NCBI GenBank assembly: GCA_977020255.1
Contig: CDROCS010003502.1
Span: 124,001 to 188,000 of the forward strand
DNA from: Obrimoposthia wandeli
Taxonomy: Eukaryota
DNA: 64,000 nt
Direction: 5' to 3'
Numbering within the stretch: the first letter of the stretch is position 1; every line of letters starts with the position of its first letter. A program made the position numbers and the translations under genes. Positions 35,398-58,027 of this stretch are shown piece after piece. The notes beneath the pieces are model-generated. The model saw only the letters and a program-made list of their open reading frames with translations. It had not been told where the DNA came from and searched no databases.

Positions 35398-38285
35398 TTT
35401 TTTTTTTTTTTATAACAACAATATATATTATATTTTCGAGACACTAAAAAGCGATTTCTCGCCAGAAAAGTTACAAAAGTAACCGGCCTTCAACAGGTCC
35501 ACACAATCTCCACTCTCTGCTAGCACAGGGTCCAGTGCAGGAGCTCCTTTCCCACGTCCCAGCAGCATCTGAAGAACCCACGTCAGGTCTGAGGACGGAT
35601 ATTGTCGTCATCAGGTGGTTTCTCCATAGTTTCGGCAGTTTCCACAACTTTCGGCATTTCTGCTTCATTTGTCGGGCTCCACATCCGAATCATGTTCATC
35701 TATCTGGACCTCTGTATCTTCTGCTACAAGAGCACGGATTTGTGAGGTGAATGTCCTTGAGCAGTGGAAATGCCACATTTCCCAGCTCCATTTGATTGTC
35801 GCAGTCACAGCCTCCTTGGAGTAGTCCTTGATGACTGGCCCTTTGAGTCCTAAAAGATTGAGAAACTTGTCGTTTAACGGACACCGACTGCCAAAACCGC
35901 CCACCACGATCATGTCTACAAACACGTTCCAATTTTGGAGGCGGGACTTGATCTCAGCCCTGAGATTTTCATATTTTACTTCATTCCATAGCCGGGCTTC
36001 TGACAGGTTGGCAGCAATTGTTGTATGGCACCTTTATGTCGAGGATGACAAATCTGAGGCGCTGTTGATTTATTATTTGAATATCAGGTCTCAGATTTGT
36101 AGCTGAAAACTCGCACGTTTTGTCCACCTCGATCCTGTAGTCATTGTTCCTTTGTAGGTACTTGACCAGGATATCTTGTACGGCGTTGTGACGGGTCCTC
36201 CTTAGGGCACTTAGATTTTACAGTGACTGAAAACATGAAATTGGGTTTCTATAGTAGCATTGCAAGCACGACAATGTCTCATCTCTTGAGAGCGGCTTGG
36301 GTGCGCATTCGTAGGCAGACAGTTTGTGCGTGCACGATGAATAAATATCCAATCGTGGTAGCTGAGGCTTCCGTCGCGTATTATTGTGCTGGAGATCCGG
36401 CTGGCTGCTAGTGCTGATGCGGAAACTCCCTGAAACACTTGTGACGACCACCGGATGAAGTGGGACTTTTCAAGCAATCGACGAAGGAGTTTACACACAA
36501 CACCTTTGTTTGTGGGCTTGACAAGCTGTGGGTGAGCGCTCTCAGACGATCCAAGCTTGAGGCAAATGCCATTCTCATTCGTTAAGAATTCGCATATTAT
36601 GTTACGTTTCGACATTAAGTAATGTACTGCGTCACGTACTTTAGTCCACCAGAAATGGTAATTGTCCTGGCCTTTCCCTTCTTTAAGCCATGATAGCCAT
36701 TTAGGGTCACGTTTCAGGAGTGGAAGACGGCGATGTTTTGCAGCGACATCGTGAAGTTCTTCCCTTGCAGTATGACTCACAAGCTCATCAAAGCAGTTAA
36801 GCATTCTGAAAGCATGGACCACCGCTTGGACGGCATAGTCGTCACGGGCAGAAGTTAGGCCAAGGCCACATTGTTTGTTGGATGCGTATAGATAGGAGTT
36901 ACTGGTTGTTTTTGGCAGATGAACTATACTTTTGATAACTCCCCTAATACGAATATCATATCCACCTTGAGAGAACTTTCGATTATCCTCAGAGCGCTCG
37001 TAAGAGTGCAACAATGCAAGTCGTATCCTTGCCAGTCTCAGAGTGAACGTGAGCCTGGAGTGAATAAACGTTCTGTAGGCGTCGATCTTTGGCCAGGGCC
37101 GAAGTGTGCTTACGGCAATCTTCTCCATGTCGGAAACAGTTGTATCGAGTAGTGCTTGAGGATCTTGCCTGTGAGAATGACCAAATTCTACACCTAAGTA
37201 GTGATAAGGCGGGTCCAAGACTGTCGGCATCTCGTTTCCACTGATCATAATTCGGTACACCGGACGCACAAAAAGCGGCTGGGGCATGATATTACGCCTG
37301 CTGCAATAGAGAATGCAGGGGTCCGAAGTTGGCTTAGGAGCGGCTGGTTCTCCAGGGAGTCGTAAGTATTCGCACTTTCCAGGGTTAAATTTGAGATTTG
37401 ACCAAGTTGCCATCTCTTCGGCCTTGTCAACCATAGCTTGTAGGACATCATTAGTACTGGCAAATAAAGCCAGATCATCGGCATAAGACAGTACATCGAT
37501 CCTCTTGCCATGTAAATTAATGCCTGCATCTGGAATTTTAGATATTTCAGAAATGACCGGGTTGATACCAATGTTAAAGAGTAACATCGAAAGTGGGCAA
37601 CCCTGGCTAACTCCACGACTGATCGGGATCGCTCAAGTTGTAAGTGATCCATAGAAGTATCTGGAACCGCATTCAGAGTAGAGTGACTCGATCAAATTAC
37701 ATGAGTTCTCATTAATCCCCATTCGTCGGAGAAGACCAGACATTTGAATGATAGGCATACATCCGAATGCGTCAGATATGTCAAGGAAGCCAATGTGGAT
37801 CTTTAAAATGAAGTTGTCACGTTTCCGACTCTCGATGATGCTGTTCAGAATGAATGTATGCTCAGCGCACCCTTCGAACTTCCCAGCACTTTTCTGAAGA
37901 GGGTGCAGTAGATGGTTCTTAGTAAGCCATTGTTGCAATTGCCAGGCAAGACATGAAGTGAATATCTTGTAGCATGTATTCAGTATGGCAATAGGACGCC
38001 ATGAAGAAACCTGGTCGTACTTACCATCTTTGTTTGGTTTGGGTATCATCAATGTCCTAAACTGCCGCCAGGTCGTTGGCGTGATTCTATCAGTTATAAT
38101 CTTGTTGAATAAGCTGGTGAGTAGAGCACTGTCTGGGTCGCAGTAACAAATGTCTGAGTAGAGTACATTGTCTTCTCCGGGTGAGGAGTCAGATAGACTC
38201 TTCAGAGTCATGGCAACTTCGGTAGGAGTCATGGTGGTAAAACAGAATTCCGGGCCGTGCTTTATATTTTCCGGGCCGTGCTTTA
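35398..38285 (-). mobile_element. 5'-truncated NeSL/R2-group non-LTR retrotransposon (RT + restriction-like endonuclease), defective
   Basis: RT motifs SPGED, WRPIAI, FLDISDAFG, GVSQGCPLS and YADDL; HRARTNCLP, CCHC (CRAC...H...C), RHN and LRPDI..DIK..KY RLE. In-frame TGA at 37633 and frameshifts near 36210 and 35990. Poly(A) at 35398-35412; 7-bp TSD TATTTAA at 35391-35397 and 38286-38292. Confidence 0.92.
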
Positions 38286-41279
38286 TATTTAATAATGTTT
38301 TATATGCAATAAGTATTGAAGTACAGCTTTCTTCTATCTTTAATTTAAACCATTTACGTTTTTTTAAAAACATTTTGTCAAATATACGAAATCGAGCTTC
38401 TTGGAATATTTTGTCAACCTTGAATAAATGTATGTGAGAAACGAAAAAATTAATAGTTTAAAGTGAAAGCATCTTGGTGTACCTGCTATCGTTATGAATA
38501 CTTATAACATGCTGCATATTTGGATATAACGTTAAACAAATTAGATTTAATTTTTTCAAAAAAGACGAAATCGGGCTTCAAATGTTAAATGTATACGATT
38601 TGTATGTAGTACCTATTTTGATTTTCAGTTGGTGCTTTGAGACCCACTGAGAATAATTCCACAGAATGCTTATTTTTGCACTTGATCGCTTACTGACATC
38701 AGATTCAACATCCAGGCTGTCTATATACGCGACCTCTTATCAGTAGGATGCTATTGATGCAACTCTCAGGTATTTCTTTATGAGAAATTACGACAACTGT
38801 GATTGTTACTTGTATGATATTATATCTCAAATACAGAGGGTAAAGCTATAAGGTTTGTATGTAGTACCTACTTTGATTTTCTCAAATCTGAGTATACTTA
38901 TGGCTGTCTATATACGCGACCTCTTATAACAATTATAACAATAAGTAAGGACTCAAAACAAAATATATTGAAACAAAGTTGGTACAAGTTAGTCTACTAC
39001 GAGTTTACAAACAGTTAGAAAAGTTGTCTTACTTTTGTGCATGTCCTATGTACTGAGTTCCGTGTTGGGATAGTCAGGTAAATGATATGTGAAATATAAA
39101 AAGGATGGGACCATAAAGTTGTGTTTAAAAAAGTCAATTGATCTTACTTACGATGTCCTCCAATGTCTTGCTTATCACTATGTATCGTATTTTGATTTCC
39201 CCTTGTGATTATCTCGCTTTAATACTGAAAAGCTCGGTGGTGGTTACATGATCCAACGGCCAATGAAGTGAAGTTTTCGGTCAGCGTCTTTCTCCCTTCT
39301 CTCTTCTCAACTATTCCTAAAAACGCCCTCTCTCCTATCTGCATACTGCCTCAACTTGCATGAAAAATTTATAGTCGGTACGTGAGATGACGTTGGTTAG
39401 ATCAATTAATCTTAATTTATTTTCTTAAAATTTTGATTTGATTTAATTATTTACACCATCTTTTTAAACAAAGTATTGGCCGGCAGTATAAATATAGCTA
39501 AATTTGTTTGTTCATTTTTGGATCTTAACAATTTGTAAAATATTTAAATGACTTCTGTTTTCCATTATATTTCTGAATTTTATTTGTTTATAATGTAATG
39601 AAATAATGTAATTATCGTTTGTATTTTCAAGTCATTTGACATTAAATACATCTTTAGAAATTTTCCTCTATTTTATCCTTTCTATTATTTTGTCTTTAGT
39701 ATCCTTGTGTCAATATCCTGTGTACTGATAGTAAATTCACATTTTATTTTATTTATTCTGTGTTGAATTGTGGTATATTTCATATAACAAAAATAAATTT
39801 AACCCATTTAAGATTTGTGTTTTTCAAAGACAAACACCTACACATCGAAACATCTAACCTTCCAATTTTGAGACATCGCTAAGAACTTATGAACTAGTGG
39901 CTTCCATAAGAAGTGTAATACTTTTATTGGTGGAAATAGTTGGGAATTTTAGTATAGAATAATCGAAAGAGAAAAATTTTGATCATTAACCAAGGCACTT
40001 TTAATTAATTTACATAATATATTTGTCTGACGACAATGATTAAAAAGATAAAATAACACATATTTTCAAGCATGAAGCACGATTTTTCTTTAAATTAAAT
40101 TGAAAATACGGACAAAGCACGTTGTCCTTTTAATATAATTGTACAGACAATGTTAGTAAAATTCCCTCGATATAAAAAGCTTCATTTCATGGGTATTTTC
40201 ACGGAAAGTTCAAGTCATTCAATAAATACTGTGTCGATTTGATCTACTGCGATGATGATGACGATGAACAGAACAGAGCAATGTCCACGAGGTAAATTGA
40301 ATTGGGAAATTCTTTCGGGGAATGATGGTGAGCTCATGTAGTTTATCCTGAAAAAATGTCTTATAGAATTTGATTTGAGTAAATTTTGTTTTGCTTTTTA
40401 TCAGATTCGTGGTTTAGCTTTCCTCAATTCAAGATCGAAATTATGTGGCTTGTGCACAAATAAATACGATAAATGAGCTATATAAAATAAACATTACATA
40501 ACAATTAAATGATTTTCATGGAACTATAATAGCAATTATTAGCAGAAACTCTGAAACCTTCCAGCCAGAATAAATTCTCTCATCAGTAGATGATAGAGCC
40601 GATGCTGCATACAATTCTCGCCATTGCAAATGGGTAATAATGTACTCATCAAATTTCGCATTTATGAATAACAATACTAATAAAAACAGTGTTTTTGTAT
40701 TCAGATATGTTGCTGCATATAATTAAATTTTAGAAACCGCAAATCAAGAAGATGATGTGTTTCGTCACCATTTCGGTAATGAGAATTTATTCCAGCTGAA
40801 ATTTCAAGATTAGAGATGGTTAGCTATATTATTGGATATTTGACGATGAAGCGTTTTACTTTTATCGTCTGAGAAGATATAAAATGGATTTGAACAGAAT
40901 ATTCTCAGTATCCTGTATATGCATGCATTTACATATATATAGCATTTTAACTCCCCATCTCCAACTGAGTTCTCGGTTCTCGATTTATGCAAAATGATGC
41001 TTGTTTAACTAAGAAAATATTTCTAATTTCCAATTATATTGTGCTTAAATTTTGTTTAATCAATGACGTTTTCATAATAAAGTGAACTAAAGTGATTAAA
41101 GAGGTACGTTTTGTCGTGAAATTCATAGATATGATACATTAAATTTCATTTGTTTAATAATTTTTACATTTGGTTAAAAACTTTCATTCGCCATATTTTT
41201 GGTAGAAATTATGCTTTAAACCGCTATTGAGGTAAACTTATGTTTATTGACTTTTTGAATAAATTTGATAATGATGATC

Positions 41280-43462: not shown

Positions 43463-44131
43463 AGAAGTGTAAAGTGTCGGTTCTAAAACAATAGCACACA
43501 AAGCCCCCCCCCCCCCGAACAAGGCACAAGGAACAAAGCACATCTGAAATTTGTTTAGTCATACAGATGTGCTTTGTTCCTTGTGCCTTGTTCGGGGGGG
43601 GGGCTTTGTGTGCTATTGTTTTAGAACCGACACTTTACGTCTCGAAATTTGTTTGGTCTTATGCGTCACTTACGATTATGTAGGTTAATATTCTGTAACA
43701 TTTGTATATAGTTCAAANNNNNNNNNNNNNNNNNNNNNNNNNNNNNNNNNNNNNNNNNNNNNNNNNNNNNNNNNNNNNNNNNNNNNNNNNNNNNNNNNNN
43801 NNNNNNNNNNNNNNNNNNNNNNNNNNNNNNNNNNNNNNNNNNNNNNNNNNNNNNNNNNNNNNNNNNNNNNNNNNNNNNNNNNNNNNNNNNNNNNNNNNNN
43901 NNNNAAATATGTAAATTAAAAAATTTAAATTTTAATTCAAATTAAAAAATTAAAATTTTAATTCGAAAATTAAAATTTGAAATTAAACACAATTGACCGT
44001 CCCAAATTTTTATTTGCAACTATTTAATTTACTTAGTACTGCGACCTCATTCCAGGAGTTAGACTGCCCCGCATAACCGGACAGCTATCGCAGTTTTTAT
44101 CATAAGAAACGTTATTGTTTATAGTAGGAGT
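43463..44131 (+). repeat. Left TIR of the Polinton (contains assembly gap 43718-43904)
   Basis: Reverse complement of 57455-58027, with a few substitutions and indels. Confidence 0.95.
44038..44094 (-). ncRNA. Candidate small structured RNA in left TIR (second copy 57492-57548, + strand)
   Basis: GC-rich 57-mer closed by ACTGCGA/TCGCAGT, starting 29 nt after a TATAAACAAT box and followed by AATAAA. Function is inferred only. Confidence 0.35.
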
Positions 44132-44154
44132 TTAGTAAAAAAAAAAGTCTATGT

Positions 44155-44394
44155 TTATACATAATTATATTCATTGTCACAATCCATGCTTTCTTCTTCT
44201 TCTATTTTAATGATTGTTGCAACTTTAGGTTTAAAGTCTCCATTAAACAGGTGATACATATAAAGTTCTTCAATCCTTGAGACAAAAAGTTCTGGTGCAA
44301 CAAATAAGCTAAAGTACTTTTCAGTATACTGGGCCATCAAGGTAGGGCTCAGGTTATCATAGAGAGCTTGCAATTTTTCTTTAGAAGTAGTCAT
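44155..44394 (-). CDS. Polinton hypothetical protein (79 aa from first ATG)
   Basis: Open frame MTTSKEKLQ...; a TATAAACAC variant box lies 40 nt upstream of the ATG. Confidence 0.55.
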   Translation of the reverse strand: MTTSKEKLQALYDNLSPTLMAQYTEKYFSLFVAPELFVSRIEELYMYHLFNGDFKPKVATIIKIEEEESMDCDNEYNYV

Positions 44395-44559
44395 TTGAAA
44401 TAATGAGAAATTGGTTGATTGAAATGTGTTTATATTTATAGAGAATTTGTTAAAATTATCCAATGAAATTATCCAATGAGTAGCTAGTAGGAAGTCAAGA
44501 CATGGTTATGATACATACAATGTATTAAAAATAAACATCAATAAAAATATATACATACT

Positions 44560-44625
44560 ATAGCATTAAAAATATATACATACTATTGCATTAAAAAGAT
44601 ACATACTATCACATTAAAAATAAGA
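44560..44625. repeat. ~25-bp tandem repeat x3 (aaaaatatatacatactatagcatt-like)
   Basis: Directly visible, lying between the polB end and the 79-aa ORF. Confidence 0.8.
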
Positions 44626-44673
44626 GGATATTAGTTAATACTTTCAAGAGGTTACCCCAGATTTTATATACAC

Positions 44674-47600
44674 CTATCTTAGACTATAGTGTCCATATGC
44701 GACGGATTTGTTTTTCTCAAGCCAAACCCTTTTATCGTCATAACACCTTAACGCAATTTTATCATTATACATTGTAAATATACACTGTCTTACCATATAT
44801 TGAATTATTTTTGAGTTTATAAAACTCTTTATCAAATGTAGTAGTACCCTCTGCCCGTTTCCGACTATTGATATCAATATATGTTTTAAATATAGGAGCT
44901 TGATGAAACTTTATTGCTCTATGCACTTGTTTAATTTCTGCACCCAGAAACAAGTAAAATTGTAGTAGTTGTGAGTGTATGATGTAATTATTTTTATCCT
45001 CATGGGTCATCAACAGCTTTGAAGCTTTTGAGCCGGGAGGGATTTCTCTATTAGGCGCAATCGGTAAGTCATCAAGTTTATCATGAATACTGATGGGTAT
45101 GCCTAAATCAATTTCCAACAAGTATCCATGTTCTTTAAGACTCAAGTTCTGCATATTACCGTGAATATCCCTCTTAGTTATAAGCTCAATTATCGCTTCA
45201 AAACCGTCATATACCCATGTAAAATCTGTATGTGGTAACGGTTGACTCAAGGCCCAGCCATATAAGTTATTTATGTCAATATATAGGAGGAATGTTTCAT
45301 CTGTTGTTTTAACGTAATGTTTATTGATGAAAGTCATCCCTCCCCGTATCCCTGCCTCAAACATGTTATACATTTCGGGATCATGCAATAAATCCACATC
45401 ATACTCTAATGTTTTTAATGCGCTAGCCCAACTGAGACCAGGGATACTAAAGAAATTGAGCGCCTCTAGATTATCATCATCCCTTACTTTCTGTCTAAAG
45501 GCCTCAAAAACATCACATAACAGATACACGTCAAGTTTCATATACTCAAGCATGTAGTCTTTAATAGTATTACACCCTAATACGGTCCACATCATTAGGG
45601 CTTCATTATATTGTTGATCAGTGACTCGAGAAGGAAACTCAGATTTAGCGGGTAACTGCGTCTCCATAAGCCTATCAACACCACTAATATATTCATATGG
45701 AAATACCGCCTTACTTGTGGCAATATTAGGGTTTAGGTATTGTGTAGTATAAGGGCAACTTGGCAAGTATGAAACTAAGGATTCAAGACTTGACGTTGTA
45801 AAAAGGTATGAATCAATGAATTTCAATGTCCCCCTCTTCATCTCTATACGGAGGGACATGAACTTTTCACTTGATTTAGGGATAATTGAAAAGGATTTAC
45901 CTTTCAAGTCGGCATATTTTAAAATATGATGTATATCATAACCCATAAGGTTATGAAACACCACAGGTAAAACCGGTCTCTTTGCAAACTTGCGACTTAA
46001 ATTGCATTTGTTGCATGCCGCACCCAAGTATTTACCCGTGATATGATCATGATCTCTAACCATACGATCGTTTAATTTTTTACAAAGATAGCAATTAGTG
46101 CAATCTCTAAAGTTTAACATGTCATTATTAGTAAAAACCATAGGAACATTAATACTATTTACCCAAAAATCTGCCACTTCACCATTTATCAACTCAGTTA
46201 ATTTATCTACAAAGTTTTTAGCACACTGCAGACCGTAATAACTGAAATATTGTATTGAATTATTAGTGTTGTTTTTCAAAATCATCCCTATAGATATTGG
46301 TTTATGAATGTGTTTGAAAGTATTATGTGGCTCGAGTATTGACTCAAAGTCGGCATATACAACAAATGGTGGCGCAATAGATTTAGACCAGTCGGAAAAT
46401 TGACACTTGATCTCTTTAGGCATTGTAAACAAGGTTGTTAAATCTGTATTAATATTACAATGTGCCCTGTGTTTGTCATATGAAATCGTGGTTCGAAATC
46501 CAAAAGACATTTCTCACACCAAAAGAGACGCACATTATATTTTTGAGTATTTAAAAGTCTATTCAGGTTTGTAATCCCTGTATAGTGATAATTACCGCTC
46601 TGTTCCAACAGCAACAAGTTTACTACCTTTTCGCACTGTTTAAGACTCGTTCTATAAATAACATTAACATCTGGGTTTTTAAACACTAGATGACTACTAT
46701 GAGGCTCTACCTTTGTAGGTTTATAGGAGAATACTGTTATCGCTATATTATTGAGTTTTTCAAACGCCTTGATACCGTCTATCCTCATAGGACCAGGCTC
46801 ACATATAAGTTCATTTAAATAATCATTATAGTTTTCAACTCTTTGTCTGTTTCGATTGAAATCTTTATAGTGTAGGATACTGAGAACAGCGTATTTAAAA
46901 CACTGATCATCAGTATTATTTACGTTCACTATAGATAGTGTTTTAGCAAGCGCAACCGGGGTTTTTATAAATGATGATCCTGCTACGTTTGAAAGTGCAG
47001 TAAATTTAAAGGATACCAACAGAATTTTAAATACTGACCATCCCGAACTCATATCCTTATAAATTTCAATTTTATTGTTGAGCTCAACTGTTCTTGTAGT
47101 GATAAAATCTTGTTCAAAAATATTTGCTTTACAGCTTACATGCCATGTTTTATGTTGACCCTCGTTATTGACAAATTCGGTTTCAACACCAAACTGTATT
47201 TTACAGGGACCAAACACATCTATACTGCTAGTAAGTTCAGTTAGCATAGTATCGTTAATGTATAGTTTAAGCATGTTTAATCCACTAACATCAAAAACAA
47301 GGTTTGATTGAATTGCACCTCCTATTTGATTGTTAAAAGTTAATGTATTATCTGAATTAATTGTAACAATATTATCAAAGTCATCATCCGTAATAGTTAG
47401 GAGTGAGTCGAAAAAATCATTTTCTGTTATAAACTCGTCCTGATCTATAAGTTCATCAATATTATTATTATTTAAGATTTCATTAGGGCTTAAAGGCTCA
47501 ATAATTTCTACAACTTCAGGATAAGTATCAATTTCTACAACACTATCCGGTTCCCATGAGTCTACCACATCAAACTCTTCAGTAAAATTATTAGTTTTTG

Positions 47601-48084
47601 CTATTTTATTGTTGTCTATTGTTGGTACTCTCATTACTTTACGTTTGTATGCTGACTTTTTAGACTTAAAATACGTCAGATGATCCTTATGATCATAATA
47701 AAATGTTTGATAGTCAATACAATATAACACATCACAATGTGGACAAATAAAACCGCTTTTAAATTTATAATATTTAAGCATTACACTATGACATTCTATT
47801 CCATGATTAACGTTTGTGCAATACTTGTACAATGTACATAAGTTACTTCCTCCACGAAGTTTAGGGTATACATGGATAATAGCCCCCTCATGTAAAACAT
47901 CACCGATAATAGCTTCCCTTTCAAAGGGCATGCCATTACGGTTAAAATAAATTTGATCAGTCTCAAAGACTTCATATAATTTATTTGCCAGATCTGTAAT
48001 TTTCAGACCTGGACTAATATTAATGGGTTTGCAAGACCCTAATAAATTTGCAAATATTGTTATATCTGCTGGTAGTTTTCTCAA
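44674..48084 (-). pseudogene. polB: Protein-primed family B DNA polymerase (Ubl + terminal-protein region + EndoVII-like + exonuclease + partial palm); frameshifted and internally deleted
   Basis: YADFE, RDHDHITGKYLGAACNKCN, HNLMGYD, YIDINNLYG and KNNSIYGKT motifs, plus C-terminal KIALRCYDDKR..GHY. One-base frameshift at 46502-46505; catalytic YxDTDS motif absent (junction ~44785). Confidence 0.93.
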
Positions 48085-48085
48085 T

Positions 48086-48835
48086 CTACGCAGCTTCTGA
48101 CGAAATCTTTTTCCCTTCCCTACCTTCTGTTTTAAGTTTACTTAAATCAATATTTTGATTTTTTACTTTCTTTAATTGATTAAAATATTTTTTAAACGGG
48201 ATATTTTCAAAACCCGAGTATATCTCATTTACGTTGAAATTTTCTACTGAATTAACAGGTGACCCAACAGGTGTTCCTGGTTTAAAAAGTAAGGGGTAAC
48301 CTCTTGATTTAATTAACTTATTCTGCGACCCCATTCCAGGAGTTAGACTGCCCCGCGTTACCGGGCAGCTATCGCAGTCGGGAGAATAAGATTTTATATC
48401 CCTTATATCCCCAAAAAGTTTATATAAATGAGTATCATATGGAGAATGAGAATGAGAATGAGAATGAGAAGATGAAGAAGAAGAAGGAAGTTGAGAGTGA
48501 GAAGATTTCTCAAGAGATAAAAAAACTTTTGACATTTTCTTCTTTTCATCATCATCATCATATATTGTTGTTGGCATATTCTTCTTTTTCTTCTGCTTTC
48601 GGCTTCTTTTCTTAGTAGGAGCATGGTGCGTTGAAAGCCATGGTGCGATTGATATTGGCAGTGGTGTGACACTCTGTATTGCTAAATTAAATTAAAAATA
48701 ATAATAATAATAATCAAAATTACCTTTCTTCACAGGTGTCGCATCCAAGTCGACATCATCATCATCATCATCATCGACTGCAGGCTTCACTGTCCATTGT
48801 TTATTGCTGTTGTAAGCAAAAATAATTTTTGACAT
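48086..48835 (-). CDS. Spliced Polinton hypothetical protein, 235 aa (exons 48835-48724, 48681-48086; additional 5'-UTR intron 48879-48836); low-complexity, acidic and NLS-like basic tracts
   Basis: A 42-nt GT-AG intron joins MSKIIFAY...PVKK in frame to the 163-aa ORF; a 44-nt gtaagt...ttag intron ends immediately before the ATG. Confidence 0.7.
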
Positions 48836-49260
48836 CTAAAAAAAAATAATAAAAATAAAAATAAAATCAAAATACTTACTTTTCGAAATTGTGAATGAAA
48901 TTGATAAATGACACTACACTGATTGTTTATATATCGTTCACAATCAGTGTAGTTGCTGCCCTAGATGTACACGTCACACATCACGTGTGTACTTACAAAC
49001 TAGGAATGCGTAATAAAGACTCTTTATTCCCTAGTTGCTACACACGTGATCATAAAGGTTAATTACGGTCAATCAATTATGAATATTTTCATAACCGATA
49101 TTCACACCGTTAAACTTTAAATTTTTAAAAATAATTAACACCATTAATTTTCTCTTAATTAGTAGATTTTAAATCTATTTTTTAATTTATCAAAACTCAA
49201 ATTTTTTTTAATTTCGATGGGACAGCTATTTATAAAACAAATACGATTTTGAATACAAAT

Positions 49261-49266
49261 TTTATT
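49261..49266 (-). terminator. Probable polyadenylation signal (AATAAA) for the structural-gene block
   Basis: Lies ~35 nt downstream of the protease stop, at the start of the only long intergenic gap in the block. Confidence 0.45.
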
Positions 49267-49297
49267 ACCAATCAACACAAATAAAAAGGTTTGACAT

Positions 49298-49678
49298 TTA
49301 TATAGTTTGATCATACAACCATAAGATACATAGTGGACCGCAATTAGTAGTCAGTGGGTTTTGAGAACGAATTTTGTTGTAATATACATGTTTTCCTTGA
49401 GACTCTACATGCTTGATAAGTTTTCCCGGATAGTATACTCCAAGAGGGTCATACACATGTACAGAATTCCGTCTCACGAATAACGCAATCCAGTGTTCTC
49501 CAGGAAGATTTGAGGTATGTGTATTGACAATATATCCCCCAGGCGTTAATGTTGGGATTTTTTCCAACGGGTATACACCCTTAAATCGCGGTCCGAGCAG
49601 CAAACTAGTTATTTCATTCACCTGAACAGTACTTGTTGTTAATAAAATCTTAAAACATAAATTAAAAACTCACTTCAT
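49298..49678 (-). CDS. Adenain-like (adenovirus-type) cysteine protease, spliced, 112 aa (exons 49678-49674, 49631-49298)
   Basis: IVNT...PGEHWIAL and Q....NCG motifs. A 42-nt gtgagt...aag intron restores the typical MNT.Q...FKGVYP N-terminus; the ATG overlaps the capsid stop (ATGA). Confidence 0.9.
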
Positions 49679-50898
49679 ACAATCACACGTCGGCCTTTAG
49701 TTATTTCAAACTCAGAATCAAAAATCCCGTAAATCAGTACGTTTGTTGGGACTGTTAATGACTTGTGAAACTTGATGTCAAGGCGTAAATTACCCTGTTT
49801 TGCTAATTGGTTTTGCGTGATATCAAAGTCAGGGGCTAAAACAAACGTGAAAAATGGATATTTGGTTTCGAATTCATCCAGTGATACGCCATTGTTTATA
49901 TTCTTATCCAAATTACCCATATTTCTAATGATAGATTGGACATATGCAAAGGTGGTTTCACCTGTTTCAAAGTTTGTACTGTAATATTCGTTAAAATCAC
50001 TGTTTCTAGCAAGACTGATAGTGTTAACATTAGAATGATCGAATGTTGAAGAGTCTGTAGCACCATTACCGATAAGTTTTTCACCTGCTTGCAACGTAAT
50101 CAACACAAATTTAGGCAATTGTTCATCATCAAACACTTGATCCTTGTAAAAACTCGTAGAACCGATGGCTAAGGTATGATACATTAGCTTTCTGCGAGTA
50201 TAGGGATATACAGCATTCCTAGATTCAAGACCAATATTATGTCCCATTAAAACATCATTCTCAACTCTGACTCTTCTGACTTTAAGTTTAGCTTCAATAA
50301 ATATGATTCGCGCTAGAGTCGTTCCGTAGTTCAGACAAAACATAGATTTATTAGGTACAAGTCTTACCATGATAGACACACCAGGTAAGAGATACTTTGG
50401 TTGCTCAAAAATATCAGATCGAAGAGTCCCACACAAGTCAATTTCTTTTGAGCGAGCAGCCCAACCTTTACGCTTATCATCATCATCATCATAACCTATA
50501 CTCGACAAACAAGTGTCTTTAGTGTCTGTGCTATAGTTTAGTATGGTTTCAATCATAGCTTTTTGTGCATATTGAGGATGGGTTTCTACTACAGTATTAT
50601 TCATTGTTATATCTATGCTTTTAAATAGGGAATGCATCAAGAAATTTGATGGGACCACATTATCTGCAACAGCTATTTCTGTACCATCAGTTTTCGTTAC
50701 TTTAATTTTCACAAACAACAAGGTATCATTCAAATCTAAGTACTCAATATCTGAACCTTGGATTTTAAACAGAATCTCTGATGTTCTTGTTCCGGTAATA
50801 TTGTTTGTTGGATATATATCTTCAAAGCTACCATTATTTACAACTACCTGGGGCAAAGCTCGATCAAAAATACATAATTCAGATTTACCACAAGCCAT
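49675..50898 (-). CDS. Major capsid protein (Polinton PY, double jelly-roll; F54H12.2-like)
   Basis: KSEL..F, EYLDLNDTLL, FLMHSLF and LRSDIFEQPKYLLPGV motifs typical of Maverick MCP; 407 aa. Confidence 0.82.
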   Translation of the reverse strand: MACGKSELCIFDRALPQVVVNNGSFEDIYPTNNITGTRTSEILFKIQGSDIEYLDLNDTLLFVKIKVTKTDGTEIAVADNVVPSNFLMHSLFKSIDITMNNTVVETHPQYAQKAMIETILNYSTDTKDTCLSSIGYDDDDDKRKGWAARSKEIDLCGTLRSDIFEQPKYLLPGVSIMVRLVPNKSMFCLNYGTTLARIIFIEAKLKVRRVRVENDVLMGHNIGLESRNAVYPYTRRKLMYHTLAIGSTSFYKDQVFDDEQLPKFVLITLQAGEKLIGNGATDSSTFDHSNVNTISLARNSDFNEYYSTNFETGETTFAYVQSIIRNMGNLDKNINNGVSLDEFETKYPFFTFVLAPDFDITQNQLAKQGNLRLDIKFHKSLTVPTNVLIYGIFDSEFEITKGRRVIV

Positions 50899-50900
50899 TA

Positions 50901-51308
50901 TTAAGCAAATATTGTACCTTGTTTTCTTCGTTTGTTTATACTAAATGCTTTCTTTCTACCACTACCCTCTTGCTTTTTAGTTTCGGGTTCAACCGTTTGT
51001 GCTGCTTCACTTGCTTTACGTTTACGTCGATTTTTAATAATTTTAACAACTGTACCAAAAGCTTCCTTAGCCTCCGGTATGGCTCCGGCAACTTCCCCTA
51101 GTGCATGTTGTTTAAGCATTGGTAACACAGATTTGTTGTTCATTATTACATCTTGAACTGTTTTAACTCCAACACGACCTAATCTTTTCAGTATAGGGAA
51201 TGCTAACCGCCCCAATGTTTTCAACCATCCCGAACCGTACTGTTTACCTACAAAATATGGTAATTCACCACCTTGTTGAGGTCCACTAAATGTCTCAATT
51301 ATATTCAT
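50901..51308 (-). CDS. Small Polinton core/virion protein (135 aa from first ATG) with QxGG/QxGxG sites and an amphipathic helix
   Basis: QQGG, QYGSG followed by WLKTLGRLAFPILKRLG, QEGSG, basic C-terminus. Confidence 0.7.
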   Translation of the reverse strand: MNIIETFSGPQQGGELPYFVGKQYGSGWLKTLGRLAFPILKRLGRVGVKTVQDVIMNNKSVLPMLKQHALGEVAGAIPEAKEAFGTVVKIIKNRRKRKASEAAQTVEPETKKQEGSGRKKAFSINKRRKQGTIFA

Positions 51309-51344
51309 AACTGTAATGGACAACTATTTTTGAATACAGATTGT

Positions 51345-52481
51345 TTATACCTGATCTATACAACGGACATGTATGGTAAGGGATACTTTTGCATTGTTGG
51401 AAAAACTTATTGGCACACCTGCATCGTTTCTAATATTAATTTCAATGTTTGAGATTACATTTGATGCTAAAGGGATATACATGGGTCTGTATATTGCGAT
51501 ATTAACCGTGTCTCCTGGTGCTTTATTTTTATCTAACCATATAGATTTTAATAAGGGTATCATTTGACCTCCAACGTTTACAGGTTCACACAGACTAGAA
51601 TACAAGTACATGTGATCAAACTCGTAATTTAATCGAGGTAGTCCAGACCCGTTGCCCGTAAATCGTGATTTATCTAACCCTAATACATACATTAAACGTT
51701 GATCAAATCCAATATGCTCAATTCCATTCTTTAATACAAATTTTATTAGCTTATCATTATCATCAATATAAAATCTTTTAAATATGACGTCGCATTTAGA
51801 TTTAATGTATGCTACTAATGCATTTACATTATTATTATTTAAATCTTCTGTAAATACAATTTTCTTGTTGTATGAACCGGTTTTATAATGCATATATTGT
51901 AAATTATGTGCACTGCAATCAGGTCTGATAGACGTTGATCCAAGTAAAACTCCTTTATCATCAGACTCGAAACCTTCTGAAGTTAATGTATTGAAAATGA
52001 ATCCTAATTCATTTTTAGCGTCAACATCCATCTTGATATAGAATTTTTTGTTGTTGACGGATTTTATTAGTACAACATTATCCTTTTTATCAATACCTAC
52101 ACCAACTGTGCTTAAGGAAATAGAAAGCTTTGCAATCTTATCTTTAGACGTGACGGTGAGTTTTGATATTTTATTAATTGTCTTTTTAATAACTTTTGGT
52201 TCTGATTTATCACCATGCAATTGCGGTTCTTTCTTTTCTACTTCTACTTGAGTATGAATTACTGATAAAGATATTTGATCAGTCTGTTGATTGGAGAATT
52301 TAATAGAATAATTAATTTCACTGCCCTTATTTAAAATAACAGGAGTGTTTGTGTACGTAAATTCAGTTAATGCCGCCTCCCATTTACCATTTAACGTAAT
52401 TGGATTCTCCCAATCTACAGTGAATAATGAAGCCATATTATTAGGTTGAGTTTTCGGACAACTATTACTCGGTAAAATCAT
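51345..52481 (-). CDS. Minor capsid protein (penton, Polinton PX)
   Basis: LPSNS......N..S.F.......I.L.G.WE.AL.E N-terminus and YLYSSL.EPV.VG...PLL C-terminal motif. Confidence 0.78.
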   Translation of the reverse strand: MILPSNSCPKTQPNNMASLFTVDWENPITLNGKWEAALTEFTYTNTPVILNKGSEINYSIKFSNQQTDQISLSVIHTQVEVEKKEPQLHGDKSEPKVIKKTINKISKLTVTSKDKIAKLSISLSTVGVGIDKKDNVVLIKSVNNKKFYIKMDVDAKNELGFIFNTLTSEGFESDDKGVLLGSTSIRPDCSAHNLQYMHYKTGSYNKKIVFTEDLNNNNVNALVAYIKSKCDVIFKRFYIDDNDKLIKFVLKNGIEHIGFDQRLMYVLGLDKSRFTGNGSGLPRLNYEFDHMYLYSSLCEPVNVGGQMIPLLKSIWLDKNKAPGDTVNIAIYRPMYIPLASNVISNIEINIRNDAGVPISFSNNAKVSLTIHVRCIDQV

Positions 52482-53512
52482 ATAGAAATCTCTATCTGGC
52501 TTGCTTTGATCCCTGTTGATTCAGAATATCCATGCCACTTTACGAGATATTGTTTATTCTTACCACGGCCTTTAGATTTTACGACTTCTTGGATACGGAA
52601 AAGTGTAGGTTTATCAATTACTTGTAGTTCAGGTTCATAAAATTTCCCTGTTATTACATTACAGTCATCATCAACTATAGAGTACATTACAGGATTTGCA
52701 CGTTTGTCTATTTTCTCTATCCTAAACACTTCATCACTCCAATTCTGATCAAAGTTTTTAATAAAGGGGCTACCACTAAACTTTGATATCCGAACATAAT
52801 CACCAGTCTTATGTTTAGGTTTATTAACTTTATCGACTTGATTACGACTCAACCAAATTTCCATTGCATTTTTATCATTAATATCGACAGGTCTCAATCC
52901 GTCTAAACCTCTATGCTTACTGTGATTGTATGAAGTCATTACTTTTGGTAAAACGTCAACCCATCTTTTATTGCCTTGTGCAATAAAATGTCTTTTTAAT
53001 CGATCTCTCAATGTTCTATTAAACCTTTCAACTAGGGCAGCTTTGAATTGTGAAACTACAGAGTAATGTTCAATATTTAATTTTTTAAATAAACTACCTA
53101 CATTTTTGTTGTAAAACTCTTTACCCTTATCAGTTTGCACATGTATGGGGACAGTTTTATCAGTCATTATACTTAGAGCAGCCTCTATATCCTTACCTGA
53201 TTTAGATTTTACAGGTAATGCACGCGCATACCTTGTAAACACGTCAATACATGTTAAAATATACTTGTTACCATCATTGATACTTGCATATGGTATCATT
53301 TCCATCAAATCGGCCTGCCATAAATCGTTAGGACCACTTGTTCTGTATGCTCGAGTCGGGAACTTCCGCTTCATTGGCTTGTTTAGACTGTATGCTAGCT
53401 GATTGCTCAGCCATTTCTGAGTTTTCTTTTGAGTCGATTGACTTCTTAATGATAGTTTGCCAATGCCGCTGTACCCAGCTGGGTTTTCGGGATCGTACCA
53501 TATCGTTTCCAT
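52478..53512 (-). CDS. int: Retroviral-like DDE integrase with C-terminal chromodomain-like region
   Basis: WQADL, QTDKGKEF and VERFNRTL catalytic triad; C-terminal QYLVKWHGY. Confidence 0.96.
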   Translation of the reverse strand: METIWYDPENPAGYSGIGKLSLRSQSTQKKTQKWLSNQLAYSLNKPMKRKFPTRAYRTSGPNDLWQADLMEMIPYASINDGNKYILTCIDVFTRYARALPVKSKSGKDIEAALSIMTDKTVPIHVQTDKGKEFYNKNVGSLFKKLNIEHYSVVSQFKAALVERFNRTLRDRLKRHFIAQGNKRWVDVLPKVMTSYNHSKHRGLDGLRPVDINDKNAMEIWLSRNQVDKVNKPKHKTGDYVRISKFSGSPFIKNFDQNWSDEVFRIEKIDKRANPVMYSIVDDDCNVITGKFYEPELQVIDKPTLFRIQEVVKSKGRGKNKQYLVKWHGYSESTGIKASQIEISI

Positions 53513-53563
53513 TACAACAATTGAATTTAAAATCGATGTTTGGTATGTTATTACCCATTTTGT

Positions 53564-53893
53564 TTATGAGTTTATCAATTTTGCAATCAAAGGAGATACT
53601 AAAGTAGCAATTATAGGTATTAATGCACCGATAAAACCACCTTTTTGTTTTAGAATTACTCTACGTTTACCAGTTTTACTTTTAGTATTCACTAAATCAA
53701 GTAAAGCTTTTTGATGTTTTCTAAGGTTATGTTTATGATTACCGATTTTTACAGTACCTTTTGTAATATTAAACAAGACTTCAACCAACTTATCAATAAC
53801 AAAGGGTGGAAATGACTTGAGTATACGTTGTCTATATATGCTTGGAGCCTTGATTAAAGCCTGAAAGTAGGGAAGTATAGATTTTGATAACAT
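53564..53893 (-). CDS. Basic virion protein with adenovirus pX/mu-like hydrophobic C-terminus
   Basis: QKGG|FIGALIPIIATLVSPLIAKLINS resembles adenoviral pX (RGG|ILPLLIPLIAAAIG). Confidence 0.65.
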   Translation of the reverse strand: MLSKSILPYFQALIKAPSIYRQRILKSFPPFVIDKLVEVLFNITKGTVKIGNHKHNLRKHQKALLDLVNTKSKTGKRRVILKQKGGFIGALIPIIATLVSPLIAKLINS

Positions 53894-53924
53894 GTTTAAT
53901 GAATTAAACTATTTGCAATATTGT

Positions 53925-54236
53925 TTATAGTTTAATCCATTTACCAACTAGTTTATTTACACGCTTTTTATCCGACTTCTTAACCGACTTTCCAACTGCT
54001 TTCTTAACAGGTTTCTTCTTTAATGGTTTCTTTTTTACAGGTTTTCTCTTTACTGTCTTTACCGATTTCTTTAATGATTCATCGACTACTTTACGCTGAT
54101 GAAGCACTGATTTAATAAGATTTTTAATATGAGCATTCTTCTTTAACATCAATTTGTTATCATTAGCGTGTAATTTATCACCCGGTCTCCATTTAGGTCC
54201 AACTCCACTAGGCATTGTTTCTTTCATAAATGACAT
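53925..54236 (-). CDS. Lysine-rich, probably DNA-condensing core protein (103 aa from first ATG)
   Basis: KKSVKTVKRKPVKKKPLKKKPVKK tract. Confidence 0.6.
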   Translation of the reverse strand: MSFMKETMPSGVGPKWRPGDKLHANDNKLMLKKNAHIKNLIKSVLHQRKVVDESLKKSVKTVKRKPVKKKPLKKKPVKKAVGKSVKKSDKKRVNKLVGKWIKL

Positions 54237-54238
54237 GA

Positions 54239-54886
54239 TTAACAAGTAGATAGGCTTTTCTTTTGTTTATATACAAAATCATTATTGAAAATATCGGTTC
54301 TCACGCGTAAATCGTCTGGACATTCCTGTGTAAAATCTAAAAACAAGTATCCATGAGGGTTAGTTGTTGCATCTTGAAATGCGTCAATCAAATATTGCTT
54401 ATTACAAGGGAAAGCTTGACGGGCAACAAAGTCGATAACCGTTTGATCTCGCGGATTTTTAAATAATACTAGATAATGTACATTTAAATTCCGAGTACGG
54501 TGTTGACCGCCTTGATGAAAAAGATTTTGAGTGATAAAAATCACTGTTACATTTCTATGTCTAGCTATTTTGGTAAACAGGTTATTAAAACCCGACTCTT
54601 TATTTGCTTCATCAAACAAATCATCAATTACAATGACATCTCCTGAATTTAACCTCTCAGACCATTTATTATCAAAACCATTAATAAAATGAATACCCTT
54701 CAATTTACCTAATTCTGTTCGTGTTAGACCAGATTCACCTACACCTCCGTAATGCCAGTATATTCTACTAAACTTTTGATTAAACATGATTTTATTTTGA
54801 AGTAATTTAGTTACAAAATGTGTTTTCCCACTCCCACTAGGTCCTACTATTTGGTAAACCGCGTTATTTTTAAGTTTTATCATCAT
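54239..54886 (-). CDS. A32/FtsK-like genome packaging ATPase
   Basis: Walker A GPSGSGKT, Walker B VIVIDDL, RH..........TQN, and R...LN..Y.VLFKNPRD. Confidence 0.95.
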   Translation of the reverse strand: MMIKLKNNAVYQIVGPSGSGKTHFVTKLLQNKIMFNQKFSRIYWHYGGVGESGLTRTELGKLKGIHFINGFDNKWSERLNSGDVIVIDDLFDEANKESGFNNLFTKIARHRNVTVIFITQNLFHQGGQHRTRNLNVHYLVLFKNPRDQTVIDFVARQAFPCNKQYLIDAFQDATTNPHGYLFLDFTQECPDDLRVRTDIFNNDFVYKQKKSLSTC

Positions 54887-54916
54887 CAATAATAATAAAT
54901 CAAAAGAAACGATTGT

Positions 54917-55183
54917 TTATATACGTTTTATTAATATATACAACAACAGAGAATTAAAAATTGATGCAGAAAAGGTTATATACATCATGTTTGAACGATT
55001 AATTTGAACAAATTTTTCAAAATCCTTAATCCGTTTGATATCTCTATAGACATGGGTGCAAACAATTTCCTTTATATTATTACGAGAAAGTCCATCAAAA
55101 CTAGAAAAGTATTGAACTCCATTTATTGTTCCGTTTATAATTTCCTCGACTGCATCATCAACTAATTTATCGTTTTCATCCAT
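54917..55183 (-). CDS. Polinton hypothetical protein (88 aa, hydrophobic C-terminus)
   Basis: Tightly packed ORF with a TATAAACAAT box 31 nt upstream. Confidence 0.6.
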   Translation of the reverse strand: MDENDKLVDDAVEEIINGTINGVQYFSSFDGLSRNNIKEIVCTHVYRDIKRIKDFEKFVQINRSNMMYITFSASIFNSLLLYILIKRI

Positions 55184-55201
55184 TTATATAAATCATAAAT
55201 T

Positions 55202-56101
55202 TCAATTGTTTATACCATGAAATTTTACATTTCTTACTCTCCGTTCGATCAGACATCTGCATACTGGACATGAATGTAACATTCTAGAACATGATATACA
55301 TGTATTTACATGTCCACAAGGGAGAAATACTACTTCAATATGATTATTTAAACATACTACACATTCGGGTACCTTTAAAATGTATGAAAGTATATTTATA
55401 TATTGTTTTTCAGGTTTCATTTCTAAATTAGATAAATCACAAAGCAATTCAAATAGTGAATTGTATTCACCATATCGCATCATTTTATATTTTAAAACAG
55501 ATTTTATTCTATCTTTTGTGAAAAACTTTTTCAAATATCTGATTTGGTTTGTATCCATCAACATATCGAATTTCTCGATAGTCAATGGATATTCAATTAT
55601 ACAATCTGTTTCGATTTTCTCAATAACATTAGCCTCATTATAGGGTCCTAAACATTTTGAATAGCATATATCAGGTAATTTTATATCAATATCTGATACA
55701 TGTACTTTTCCAATCAATGGTGATGTATCAAAATCGATTTTCTTGTTCATAGTTTCAATTATTGATACATTTGAAACATTTAACTTTAAAAGAAATGGAC
55801 ATGTAGGAAAAAATTTCATATGTTGCTTCATTGGTTTAAGATACCATTCCCATTCGGATAACGCACCTTGACAGTATATACATTTTACTTTATCGGTTGA
55901 ATCATCATCATGTTTATAAAATCCGGCTTTAGCTAAATCATTTACAGATTGTTTCCCTTTAAAATTTATAATTAATGATCTTAATCTTTCACTTTCACGT
56001 CTATATTTCCAGTGTAAAACTTTCATTCTAGAATAACCTACTTTTCGTCTAACTAAAACATCATCAACAGTTGTATAATGAAGTATATAATCAACTAGCA
56101 T
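55202..56101 (-). CDS. iap: Inhibitor of apoptosis (single BIR + C-terminal RING)
   Basis: BIR: R..S...LAKAGFY...C-x2-C-x16-H-x6-C. RING: CVVC...FLPCGH..C..C......CPVCR. Confidence 0.93.
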   Translation of the reverse strand: MLVDYILHYTTVDDVLVRRKVGYSRMKVLHWKYRRESERLRSLIINFKGKQSVNDLAKAGFYKHDDDSTDKVKCIYCQGALSEWEWYLKPMKQHMKFFPTCPFLLKLNVSNVSIIETMNKKIDFDTSPLIGKVHVSDIDIKLPDICYSKCLGPYNEANVIEKIETDCIIEYPLTIEKFDMLMDTNQIRYLKKFFTKDRIKSVLKYKMMRYGEYNSLFELLCDLSNLEMKPEKQYINILSYILKVPECVVCLNNHIEVVFLPCGHVNTCISCSRMLHSCPVCRCLIERRVRNVKFHGINN

Positions 56102-56142
56102 TTCAAATCATGTAAGAATAAAATTCAACTAAAATTTATTGT

Positions 56143-56635
56143 TTATATCAAAAGTAAAATATCAGTTATTATCAAAGTCACATCAAAGTGATAATCCAAA
56201 TCCTTGAGACCGAGTATGACCACTTTCCCGCTTGCAAATATGTTGACGCATAGAGGATTGTGTTTTGTAAACCTTAAAGCAGGAAACAACTCAGGTTCGA
56301 ACATGCACGCAGCTCCACACTTTTGAGACAACTTGTATAGGTTCACCTTCTTACCTAAATCGACAGTAACCGTTACTGATTGAATACGATCAATCTTTAT
56401 TCTAAATGGACACTTGAGCAAAGTTGTAGTAATAGGTTTCTTGCAACCCATTATCCTGCATGCTCCTAATAATAACTAACTAACTAACTAACATAAAAAA
56501 CATACCTGAACGGAAGATTATAAGGGTATAATCCTTACACCTGTGCACGTACTGACATGGTTTCCCGGTTTTGAAGGGTAAGTGACTGATGTCTCCTTTA
56601 ACTTTACCTTTATAATTAATATTTGCAAGATTCAT
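56143..56635 (-). CDS. TATA-binding-protein-like protein, 150 aa, spliced (exons 56635-56506, 56465-56143)
   Basis: Repeat 2: VTVDLGKKVNL...FEPELFPAL...P...NIFASGKVVILGLK. Repeat 1: LANI...LIIFRSGACRIMGCK, completed by removing a 40-nt gtatgt...ttag intron. Confidence 0.85.
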
Positions 56636-56758
56636 GATTGAATTGATGGAAATAACCCAATCTATATATAAAATTTTTAAGCTAAAGATTATCCAATCAG
56701 AATCGAGTATGATATATATATAAGCTACCACTTTTGGTATAGAATTCATTATTTTGAT

Positions 56759-57406
56759 ATGAACTCTAAACAAACTAAATCTCTTAAGTTCGAGAAGCCA
56801 CCACCAACAAGGCTTACAGACACAGATGTGGATACCGATGATGATGATGTAGTTTTTATATCAAAACCAAAGAAGCAAACTATGACAAGCAACAACCATA
56901 AACAAACCAAGACTATCAAGATTGAGAAGCAAGCAACAAATGAGGATCTCTTTATTGATGATATAGTCTCTACACCCAAACATAAGAAACCGTTCAACAA
57001 TAAACCATCAGATGTAATATTTGAGTCTAACGATTTGAAGTACACCAAGCCGGTTATGTTTTATAACTGGCAAATGAATTTTGAAGACTCAATCATATAT
57101 GGATTCATGTTTCCGGTGGCTCTGAATAAGTCAAAATACGATTTCAAGATACATAGATTAAATCCGTCAGATATTGATGATCTTAACAAAACTTTTGAGT
57201 CGATGCATCTCAACATTATAGTTGGGAATCATATAATAATTCGAGCTGATCCTAATCTTTTCAAGCGAGATCACGACTTTAATGTTGACAATATGGGAAC
57301 TGGACTCAAGTGGATGATCGTCATTTCAATACAGGGATACAAAATCAACTGTACAGGTCTTCATAAACCAATCTGGAAAATTACTGATGGACAAGTTCGC
57401 TTATAA
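56759..57406 (+). CDS. Polinton hypothetical protein (215 aa), transcribed divergently from the TBP-like gene
   Basis: Clean ATG-stop ORF with a disordered N-half and a beta-rich C-half. Confidence 0.75.
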   Translation: MNSKQTKSLKFEKPPPTRLTDTDVDTDDDDVVFISKPKKQTMTSNNHKQTKTIKIEKQATNEDLFIDDIVSTPKHKKPFNNKPSDVIFESNDLKYTKPVMFYNWQMNFEDSIIYGFMFPVALNKSKYDFKIHRLNPSDIDDLNKTFESMHLNIIVGNHIIIRADPNLFKRDHDFNVDNMGTGLKWMIVISIQGYKINCTGLHKPIWKITDGQVRL

Positions 57407-57454
57407 TTGTACTAATATATATTTATCGATGTTACTTTGCTTTCTTCAATATAG

Positions 57455-58027
57455 ACTCCTACTATAAACAATAACGTTTCTTAAGATAAAAACTGCGATA
57501 GCTGTCCGGTTATGCGGGGCAGTCTAACTCCTGGAATGAGGTCGCAGTACTAAGTAAATTAAATAGTTGCAAATAAAAATTTGGGACGGTCAATTGTGTT
57601 TAATTTCAAAATTTTAATTTTTAATTTTCATATTTAATTTTCGAATTAAAATTTTAATTTTTTAATTTTCATATTTAATTTGAATTAAAATTTAAATTTT
57701 TTAATTTCCATATTTAATTTTTTAATTTTTAAATTTTAAATTTTAAATTTTTAAATTTTGAATATTTAAATTTTTGAACTATATACTTAATGTTACAAAA
57801 TATTAACCTACATAATCGTAAGTGACGCATAAGACCAAACAAATTTCGAGACGTAAAGTGTCGGTTCTAAAACAATAGCACACAAAGCCCCCCCCCCGAA
57901 CAAGGCACAAGGAACAAAGCACATCTGTATGACTAAACAAATTTCAGATGTGCTTTGTTCCTTGTGCCTTGTTCGGGGGGGGGGGGCTTTGTGTGCTATT
58001 GTTTTAGAACCGACACTTTACACTTCT
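57455..58027 (-). repeat. Right TIR of the Polinton (573 bp)
   Basis: Reverse complement of 43463-44131. Confidence 0.95.

Follow-up and report, generated by a model that had tools for sequence, protein, structure and literature searches.

A triplicated 57-nucleotide sequence with a predicted RNA fold in the polymerase gene and terminal repeats of an Obrimoposthia wandeli Polinton

The window (the whole stretch of 64,000 nt of Obrimoposthia wandeli DNA that was analyzed) contains a 14.6-kb Polinton/Maverick element (Table 1). Pfam profiles identify genes for pPolB, an rve integrase with chromodomain, an A32-type ATPase, a BIR-RING protein, and a single TBP repeat (half-TBP), and the double-jelly-roll major capsid protein gives a weak match below the cut-off. 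Judging from motifs and gene order, we presume that an adenain-like protease and a minor capsid protein are also encoded. The pPolB gene of this particular copy is interrupted. On its flanks lie host exons that we take to be cyclin-dependent-kinase-like (21231-21578 and 27398-27745) and a broken element that is presumably of the reverse-transcriptase kind (36211-38457). With its pPolB, rve integrase, ATPase and capsid genes, its TIRs, and its 6-bp target-site duplication, the element is a Polinton/Maverick, and it has these features (including the chromodomain of the integrase) in common with the known Polintons/Mavericks (adintoviruses) as described in PMC11071296. Compared to that description, the clade of the window Polinton adds the half-TBP gene, a common gene-start motif TATAAACAA, and terminal palindromes; the triplicated 57-mer treated below is a further addition that is confined to the family of the window Polinton.

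Directly inside each terminus of the element lies a near-perfect palindrome of 170 nt (43469-43638 and 57853-58021; arms of ~75 bp and a 17-nt loop), which suggests hairpin-type ends. Read-through from an outward-pointing TIR promoter into such a palindrome would yield long double-stranded RNA. The BIR + RING gene (55202-56101) is of the inhibitor-of-apoptosis type and belongs to the window family; among the sister loci listed, only L041 has a weak match to it. Several other Polinton families reside in the same genome (L095-L110); among them, pPolB may run with or against the capsid block.

Table 1. Positions of the Polinton, the 57-mer copies, and associated features in the window.
Feature	Position	Strand	Remarks
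Polinton/Maverick	43463-58027		TIRs and 6-bp TATAAT target-site duplication; 14.6 kb
57-mer, left TIR copy	44038-44094	-	sequence identity, fold
57-mer, right TIR copy	57492-57548	+	sequence identity, fold
57-mer, third (internal) copy	48322-48378	-	inside coding exon of spliced pPolB gene
TATAAACAAT motif, left TIR	44114-44123	-	promoter class
TATAAACAAT motif, right TIR	57463-57472	+	promoter class
TATAAACAAT motif ahead of pPolB gene	48922-48931	-	in loop of 14-bp inverted repeat
AATAAA, left TIR	44009-44014	-	likely poly(A) signal of left terminal gene and any TIR-born transcript
AATAAA, right TIR	57572-57577	+	with ATTAAA at 57558-57563; first such signals behind 215-aa gene
13-codon ORF	57512-57553	+	starts within right TIR copy; start codon not in internal copy
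215-aa terminal gene	56759-57406	+	likely 3' UTR holds right TIR copy
79-aa terminal ORF	44155-44394	-	likely 3' UTR holds left TIR copy
15-nt segment	48293-48307	-	directly behind internal block; exact complement of 44644-44658
Partner of 15-nt segment	44644-44658	-	just behind pPolB stop, likely pPolB 3' UTR

The motif TATAAACAAT occurs nine times in the Polinton and once in the other 49 kb of the window, in line with the proposal of an earlier note on this DNA that its TIR copies belong to the same promoter class as the virion genes. Seven of the nine TATAAACAA sites outside the TIRs are followed by a long ORF that starts 31 to 46 nt downstream, an eighth stands at the head of the intron-containing pPolB leader, and the ninth lies inside the capsid gene. 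The same gene-start motif recurs before genes of sister Polinton families in this genome and also in metagenome contigs whose capsids are ~50% identical. Because the motif precedes genes in the Polinton and in sister families, the TIR TATAAACAAT motif is likely a promoter. Throughout the whole clade (L041-L064 and L095-L110), a single-repeat TBP gene (56143-56451 in the window) is found together with one gene-start motif, TATAAACAA, which sits 30 to 47 nt ahead of start codons and in many cases reaches into the end of the gene before. The TBP that the element itself encodes is a possible reader of TATAAACAA. Upstream of pPolB there are two strong inverted repeats (48890-49060; z -4.6 and -3.4), one of which carries TATAAACAAT in its loop.

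Identical GC-rich 57-mers lie in outward orientation at the inner edge of both TIRs. The 57-mers themselves, the TATAAACAAT that begins 29 nt ahead, and the AATAAA downstream agree with the description in the earlier note. That note had overlooked a third copy inside pPolB, and its statement that there is no ORF was inexact: 13 codons can be read from position 21 of the TIR copy, and the internal copy makes up 19 codons of pPolB. The two TIR copies represent a single event, since the TIRs are copies of each other. The internal and TIR 57-mers are identical at 52 of 57 positions (differences at 14, 20, 22, 48, and 57), and their homology extends past the 57-mer to 48307 as a 73-nt block of 90% identity. 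The 5' edge of this block coincides with the first base of the predicted outer stem P1, exactly 29 nt behind the perfect promoter motif. All three copies are sense to a gene, and the TIR copies are found ~480 to 570 nt from each end of the Polinton, beside AT-rich repeats and the terminal palindromes. In a single case (L261, G000:C1340), pPolB sequence runs straight into base 1 of the TIR 57-mer; we rejected this locus as a retrocopy, as it is a deletion joining pPolB to +1. Another locus (L289) was rejected as an expanded version of the 57-mer because the copy is full of short insertions, which are probably assembly noise.

The host genome is animal-like and 1.35 Gb in size. A 19-nt piece of the 57-mer has 3,908 matches in it at up to 1 mismatch (0 for the reversed control), and the other half has 3,931 matches at up to 2 mismatches. 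Since the matches listed are mostly grouped in threes, we infer that the genome holds ~1,300 elements.

For 10 of 14 loci (in the other four, a more distant ORF was chosen), the TIR 57-mer begins 85 to 103 nt behind the stop codon of the 215-aa gene and 55 to 58 nt behind that of the small ORF, no AWTAAA intervenes between the nearest upstream stop and the 57-mer, and the first one follows at +66 or +80. Both TIR copies thus located behind terminal-gene stops likely sit in the 3' UTRs of these genes as far as the sequence layout indicates, and a 3'-end element, one of the options raised earlier, would fit this arrangement with AWTAAA downstream. The frame through the internal 57-mer continues into the pPolB reading frame in many other copies, and the internal copy is therefore coding sequence; one common phase is seen in 39 of 50 young and 12 of 24 old copies. 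The exon upstream varies in length and keeps its phase in 31 of 38 young copies, and the phase of the intron is not kept. As a sign of coding, this phase-keeping is suggestive only, because the repeats there are triplets themselves. A weak search among longer proteins found no relative of the peptide through the 57-mer core. The spliced 5' extension of pPolB (48440-48900) is of low complexity with runs of Asp, Ser, and His and changes fast between subfamilies, and this change drops sharply just ahead of the internal 57-mer.

The 15-nt segment directly behind the internal block forms a duplex with its partner behind the pPolB stop (with a short extension) of -36.8 kcal/mol, compared to -25.8 kcal/mol for the next best of 331 windows. 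Shuffles gave a 15-mer complement that is as GC-rich in 0 of 100 cases and one of any make-up in 28 of 100. This complementarity could bring both ends of the pPolB mRNA together by base pairing, or it could be the trace of an old inversion.

On the outward strand, the TIR 57-mer has a minimum free energy (MFE) of -22.6 kcal/mol (z -2.44; 3 of 200 shuffles are as stable) and the internal copy one of -27.5 kcal/mol (z -3.36), while the inward strand folds more weakly. The three-way junction that had been proposed is indeed the MFE structure, and two of its stems are well predicted in the ensemble (P1 pairs 2-6 with probabilities of ~1.0 and P2 pairs 11-16 with 0.95 to 0.99), but the CTC/GAG stem (P3) has a probability of only ~0.4 in the TIR copy, and its register is shifted in the internal copy. 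At positions 14 and 48, where the copy types differ within stems, the outward strand has U-G wobbles and the inward strand has mismatches. Our predicted fold of the 57-mer comprises P1 and P2 on the outward strand. The internal copy is the most stable among 4,637 sampled 57-nt windows of the element interior, and 38 of 1,000 synonymous GC-matched controls fold as well as it does. Its third-position GC is 11/18 vs. a background of 25%, a value that is equaled or exceeded at three other places. Other inverted repeats in the Polinton, near the pPolB promoter, have stronger z-scores than the 57-mer.

In the sister Polinton families examined, which have the same promoter motif, we found neither the 57-mer nor a comparable GC-rich structured stretch behind the motif. 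Our model R1 scored at best 11.2 bits on 40 sister-family loci (24 from metagenomes, 16 from the same genome), a scan that is weak for the metagenome loci as most of them come without TIRs. In IMG/VR, one half of the 57-mer had 0 matches and the other half 6 chance 17-mers, the best model score was 11.4 bits vs. 88 to 91 for true copies, and no capsid relatives were found; phage records gave chance matches. Rfam searches at E<=10 placed no family on the 57-mer except for a Vault match (E 8.9) touching the internal copy. The 57-mer is real, family-specific, and triplicated, and its predicted fold is credible.

We favor, with a probability of roughly 40%, the interpretation that the 57-mer acts in cis, as a folded RNA signal of the pPolB mRNA that is specific to this family and has duplicates in the TIRs under relaxed constraint. 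Ahead of the divergence of today's subfamilies, the 73-nt block would have been duplicated between the exon of pPolB and the inner border of the TIR. In the pPolB mRNA, the fold would be bound by a protein within the 5' portion of the coding region, and this protein, for which the element's own terminal-protein polymerase is a candidate by guess, would tune polymerase expression. The TIR pair likely arose later by duplication and is less strongly constrained. Both terminal genes would transcribe these copies within their 3' UTRs, the TATAAACAAT promoter of each copy would probably yield a capped RNA of ~100 nt in addition, and the copies would compete for the fold-binding protein.

It is possible, if on the unlikely side, that the 57-mer is instead a passenger, i.e., a GC-rich piece of a pPolB exon that was captured into the TIR by template switching and is maintained by protein constraint inside the gene and TIR homogenisation outside, with an incidental fold. 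The internal copy speaks against this reading: its core lacks synonymous change, it combines the strongest fold among sampled windows with a high third-position GC, its homology to the TIR begins at the first P1 base, exactly 29 nt behind a perfect promoter motif in the TIR, and (a weak point) no protein relative was found that shows a conserved domain in the peptide. We compared 30 older internal copies, found through a flank, to the window copy as reference. Private decay per site is even (0.037 in the core, 0.031 to 0.037 in the flanks), and shared differences affect 1 of 57 core sites (a CpG) vs. 18 of 60 sites upstream and 9 of 98 downstream (1/57 vs. 27/158; Fisher p = 0.002, against the neighbourhood only). 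None of the 14 synonymous sites of the core differs; the expectation is 3.7 when based on the remaining exon (p = 0.025) and 1.7 when based on all genes sampled (p = 0.17), and many 57-nt bins of pPolB have 0 to 2 differences. Variant tables from reads (four runs, contigs of one sample) list only positions 25 and 48 of the internal core; G25A, which is high in these tables, amounts to only 67 matches genome-wide and fits CpG decay. In 30 mid-age TIR copies, position 48 alone differs in most rows. Downstream of the core, the exon does show the protein constraint that a passenger would need, with nonsynonymous 0.075 against synonymous 0.248, and the absence of the 57-mer from sister families also agrees with capture of a passenger.

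The TIR copies are more favorable to the passenger. Their core is not significantly more conserved than the flanks (4/57 vs. 9 to 12 of 75; p = 0.18 to 0.39). In the oldest TIR lineage (genes 85% to 94% identical), position 55 is non-A in 19 of the 20 ungapped rows among 22, a set mostly selected for this very feature, and 3 of 4 unselected rows agree. As position 54 is variable and the 5' strand of P1 unchanged in this lineage, outer P1 is broken there without compensation, and by this comparison P1 is apparently dispensable in one amplified TIR lineage. The earlier note had held that a lack of covariation would speak against an RNA, and we found 0 pairs changed on both sides within the family, a weak test given its low divergence. 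Among 15 distinct rows, pair 3-55 is unpaired in 8, and one-sided wobbles occur at 14-28 and 38-48. When we searched by exclusion for a more distant family in which the stems have changed, 9 and 51 matches came up, and no compensated locus was among the 39 that we fetched, all of them decayed or variant copies of the window family (12 of the 21 others were fetched later). Two further results speak for the cis-acting signal. The C14 and G48 of the internal copy are also present in the oldest TIR lineage, which indicates that the internal copy stood still and the TIR copy drifted. Flank hybrids were found 0 times among 201 copies, and ongoing recombination is therefore not what keeps the copies alike.

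We consider it unlikely that the 57-mer is primarily a dedicated small non-coding RNA, i.e., that the TIR promoter makes a capped RNA from the first P1 base that targets the pPolB mRNA in trans, either as decoy or as Argonaute guide, in the manner of the adenovirus MLP-TSS small RNA. A perfect promoter-class motif is kept in all TIR lineages seen, at a spacing equal to the short leaders of coding genes and with poly(A) signals that follow after 66 and 80 nt; of the two strands of P1, the 5' one is constant where the 3' one drifts in the TIR; and the minus strand carries the hexamer that is complementary to nt 2-7 in its two copies and, outside these, at just two places. However, the motif also occurs within coding sequence (49900) without a gene behind it, and no TATA is consistently kept at -29 of the internal copy (with C for its first T in 14 of 63 young and 10 of 30 old copies), so the +1 position is not the common denominator of the copies. 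No solo retrocopy from +1 to the poly(A) signal was seen among 21 matches screened. The MLP-TSS small RNA, as described in PMC7589676, is an experimentally shown RNA of 31 nt that is antisense to its targets, whereas a putative RNA from the 57-mer would be sense to the polymerase mRNA with only short stem strands complementary to it. The MLP-TSS small RNA is still the nearest functional likeness of the 57-mer; the same source presents it as a short stem-loop RNA from the start site of the virion-gene promoter in a pPolB virus that is tied to control of polymerase and terminal-protein mRNA.

Two other analogies that had been suggested, to VA RNA and to miRNA precursors, did not hold up. VA RNA shares with the 57-mer a GC-rich make-up, a terminal stem closing a junction, and an origin from adenovirus or an adenovirus-related virus-like element, but its ~160-nt length, RNA polymerase III transcription from internal A and B boxes, and T-run end (features taken from PMC7589676) have no counterpart: neither box was found on either strand in any of the three contexts, and no T-run ends the 57-mer at its 3' side. 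The first outward run of at least 4 T comes at +120/121 in the TIRs and at +91 in the internal copy, and an inward run exists behind the TIR copies only. The common block of 73 nt falls short of VA RNA size, and an apical stem with paired GGGU/ACCC and an Rfam match are lacking as well. As for a miRNA precursor, the MFE and suboptimal folds are branched rather than a single long hairpin, again with no Rfam match. We also rejected a tRNA-like RNA, as there is no B box and ARAGORN found no tRNA; the sole likeness is a 7-bp closing stem followed by UAG.

A signal at the DNA level seems highly unlikely. Set between the promoter and the AT-rich repeats leading to the terminal palindrome, the 57-mer would then either bind a protein or fold up in the single strand that is displaced while the DNA is packaged or undergoes protein-primed replication. 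Its presence near each end beside these repeats and palindromes would suit such a role, it folds under DNA parameters as well (-11.2 and -13.7 kcal/mol), and the strand asymmetry is no bar since DNA tolerates G-T wobble. But an origin would be difficult to square with the third copy, which lies far inside a coding exon, no sister family examined has the 57-mer, and the lack of flank hybrids in 201 copies indicates that it is not a recombination site.

We give practically no credence to a small self-cleaving ribozyme (for general context, see PMC6765202): the compact GC-rich junction with an unpaired CUAA and a relaxed HDV-like fit on the inward strand are reminiscent of one, but there is no hammerhead core, twister motif, strict HDV-like fit, or Rfam match, and cleavage within the pPolB coding exon would destroy the mRNA. 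Specifically, hammerheads, whose core consists of CUGANGA and GAAA, were rejected as CUGANGA is absent from both strands. Twister ribozymes have P1, P2, P4, and two pseudoknots (PMC5408937). They also have conserved L1/L4 residues, and they were rejected as neither strand has the L4 motif. For the HDV-like class (nested double pseudoknot, conserved L3, catalytic C), there were 0 strict fits on either strand, and relaxed fits arise in 42 to 48 of 60 shuffles, i.e., at chance level.

Returning to the favored cis-acting signal in the pPolB mRNA, the hepatitis B virus epsilon element and the translational operator of phage T4 gp43 are RNA operators that are bound by the polymerase itself. Compared by description only, the 57-mer resembles them as a fold of ~60 nt near both ends or the start of a polymerase mRNA; unlike there, binding of the polymerase would be conjectural for the 57-mer, and pPolB is DNA-templated. 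Among the literature listings searched, there was no non-coding or cis-acting RNA of an animal Polinton. It seems quite unlikely that the Polinton runs an RNA control circuit of its own, in which both TIRs would make a short capped RNA from a TBP-type promoter that copies a structured operator of the polymerase mRNA and acts as the decoy or guide setting polymerase output across ~1,300 copies. The TATAAACAA promoter motif together with the element-encoded half-TBP may be a sturdier lead than the 57-mer. If true, an RNA signal in the polymerase mRNA that is echoed in the TIRs would offer a handle on how replication of these Polintons is limited despite their ~1,300 copies.
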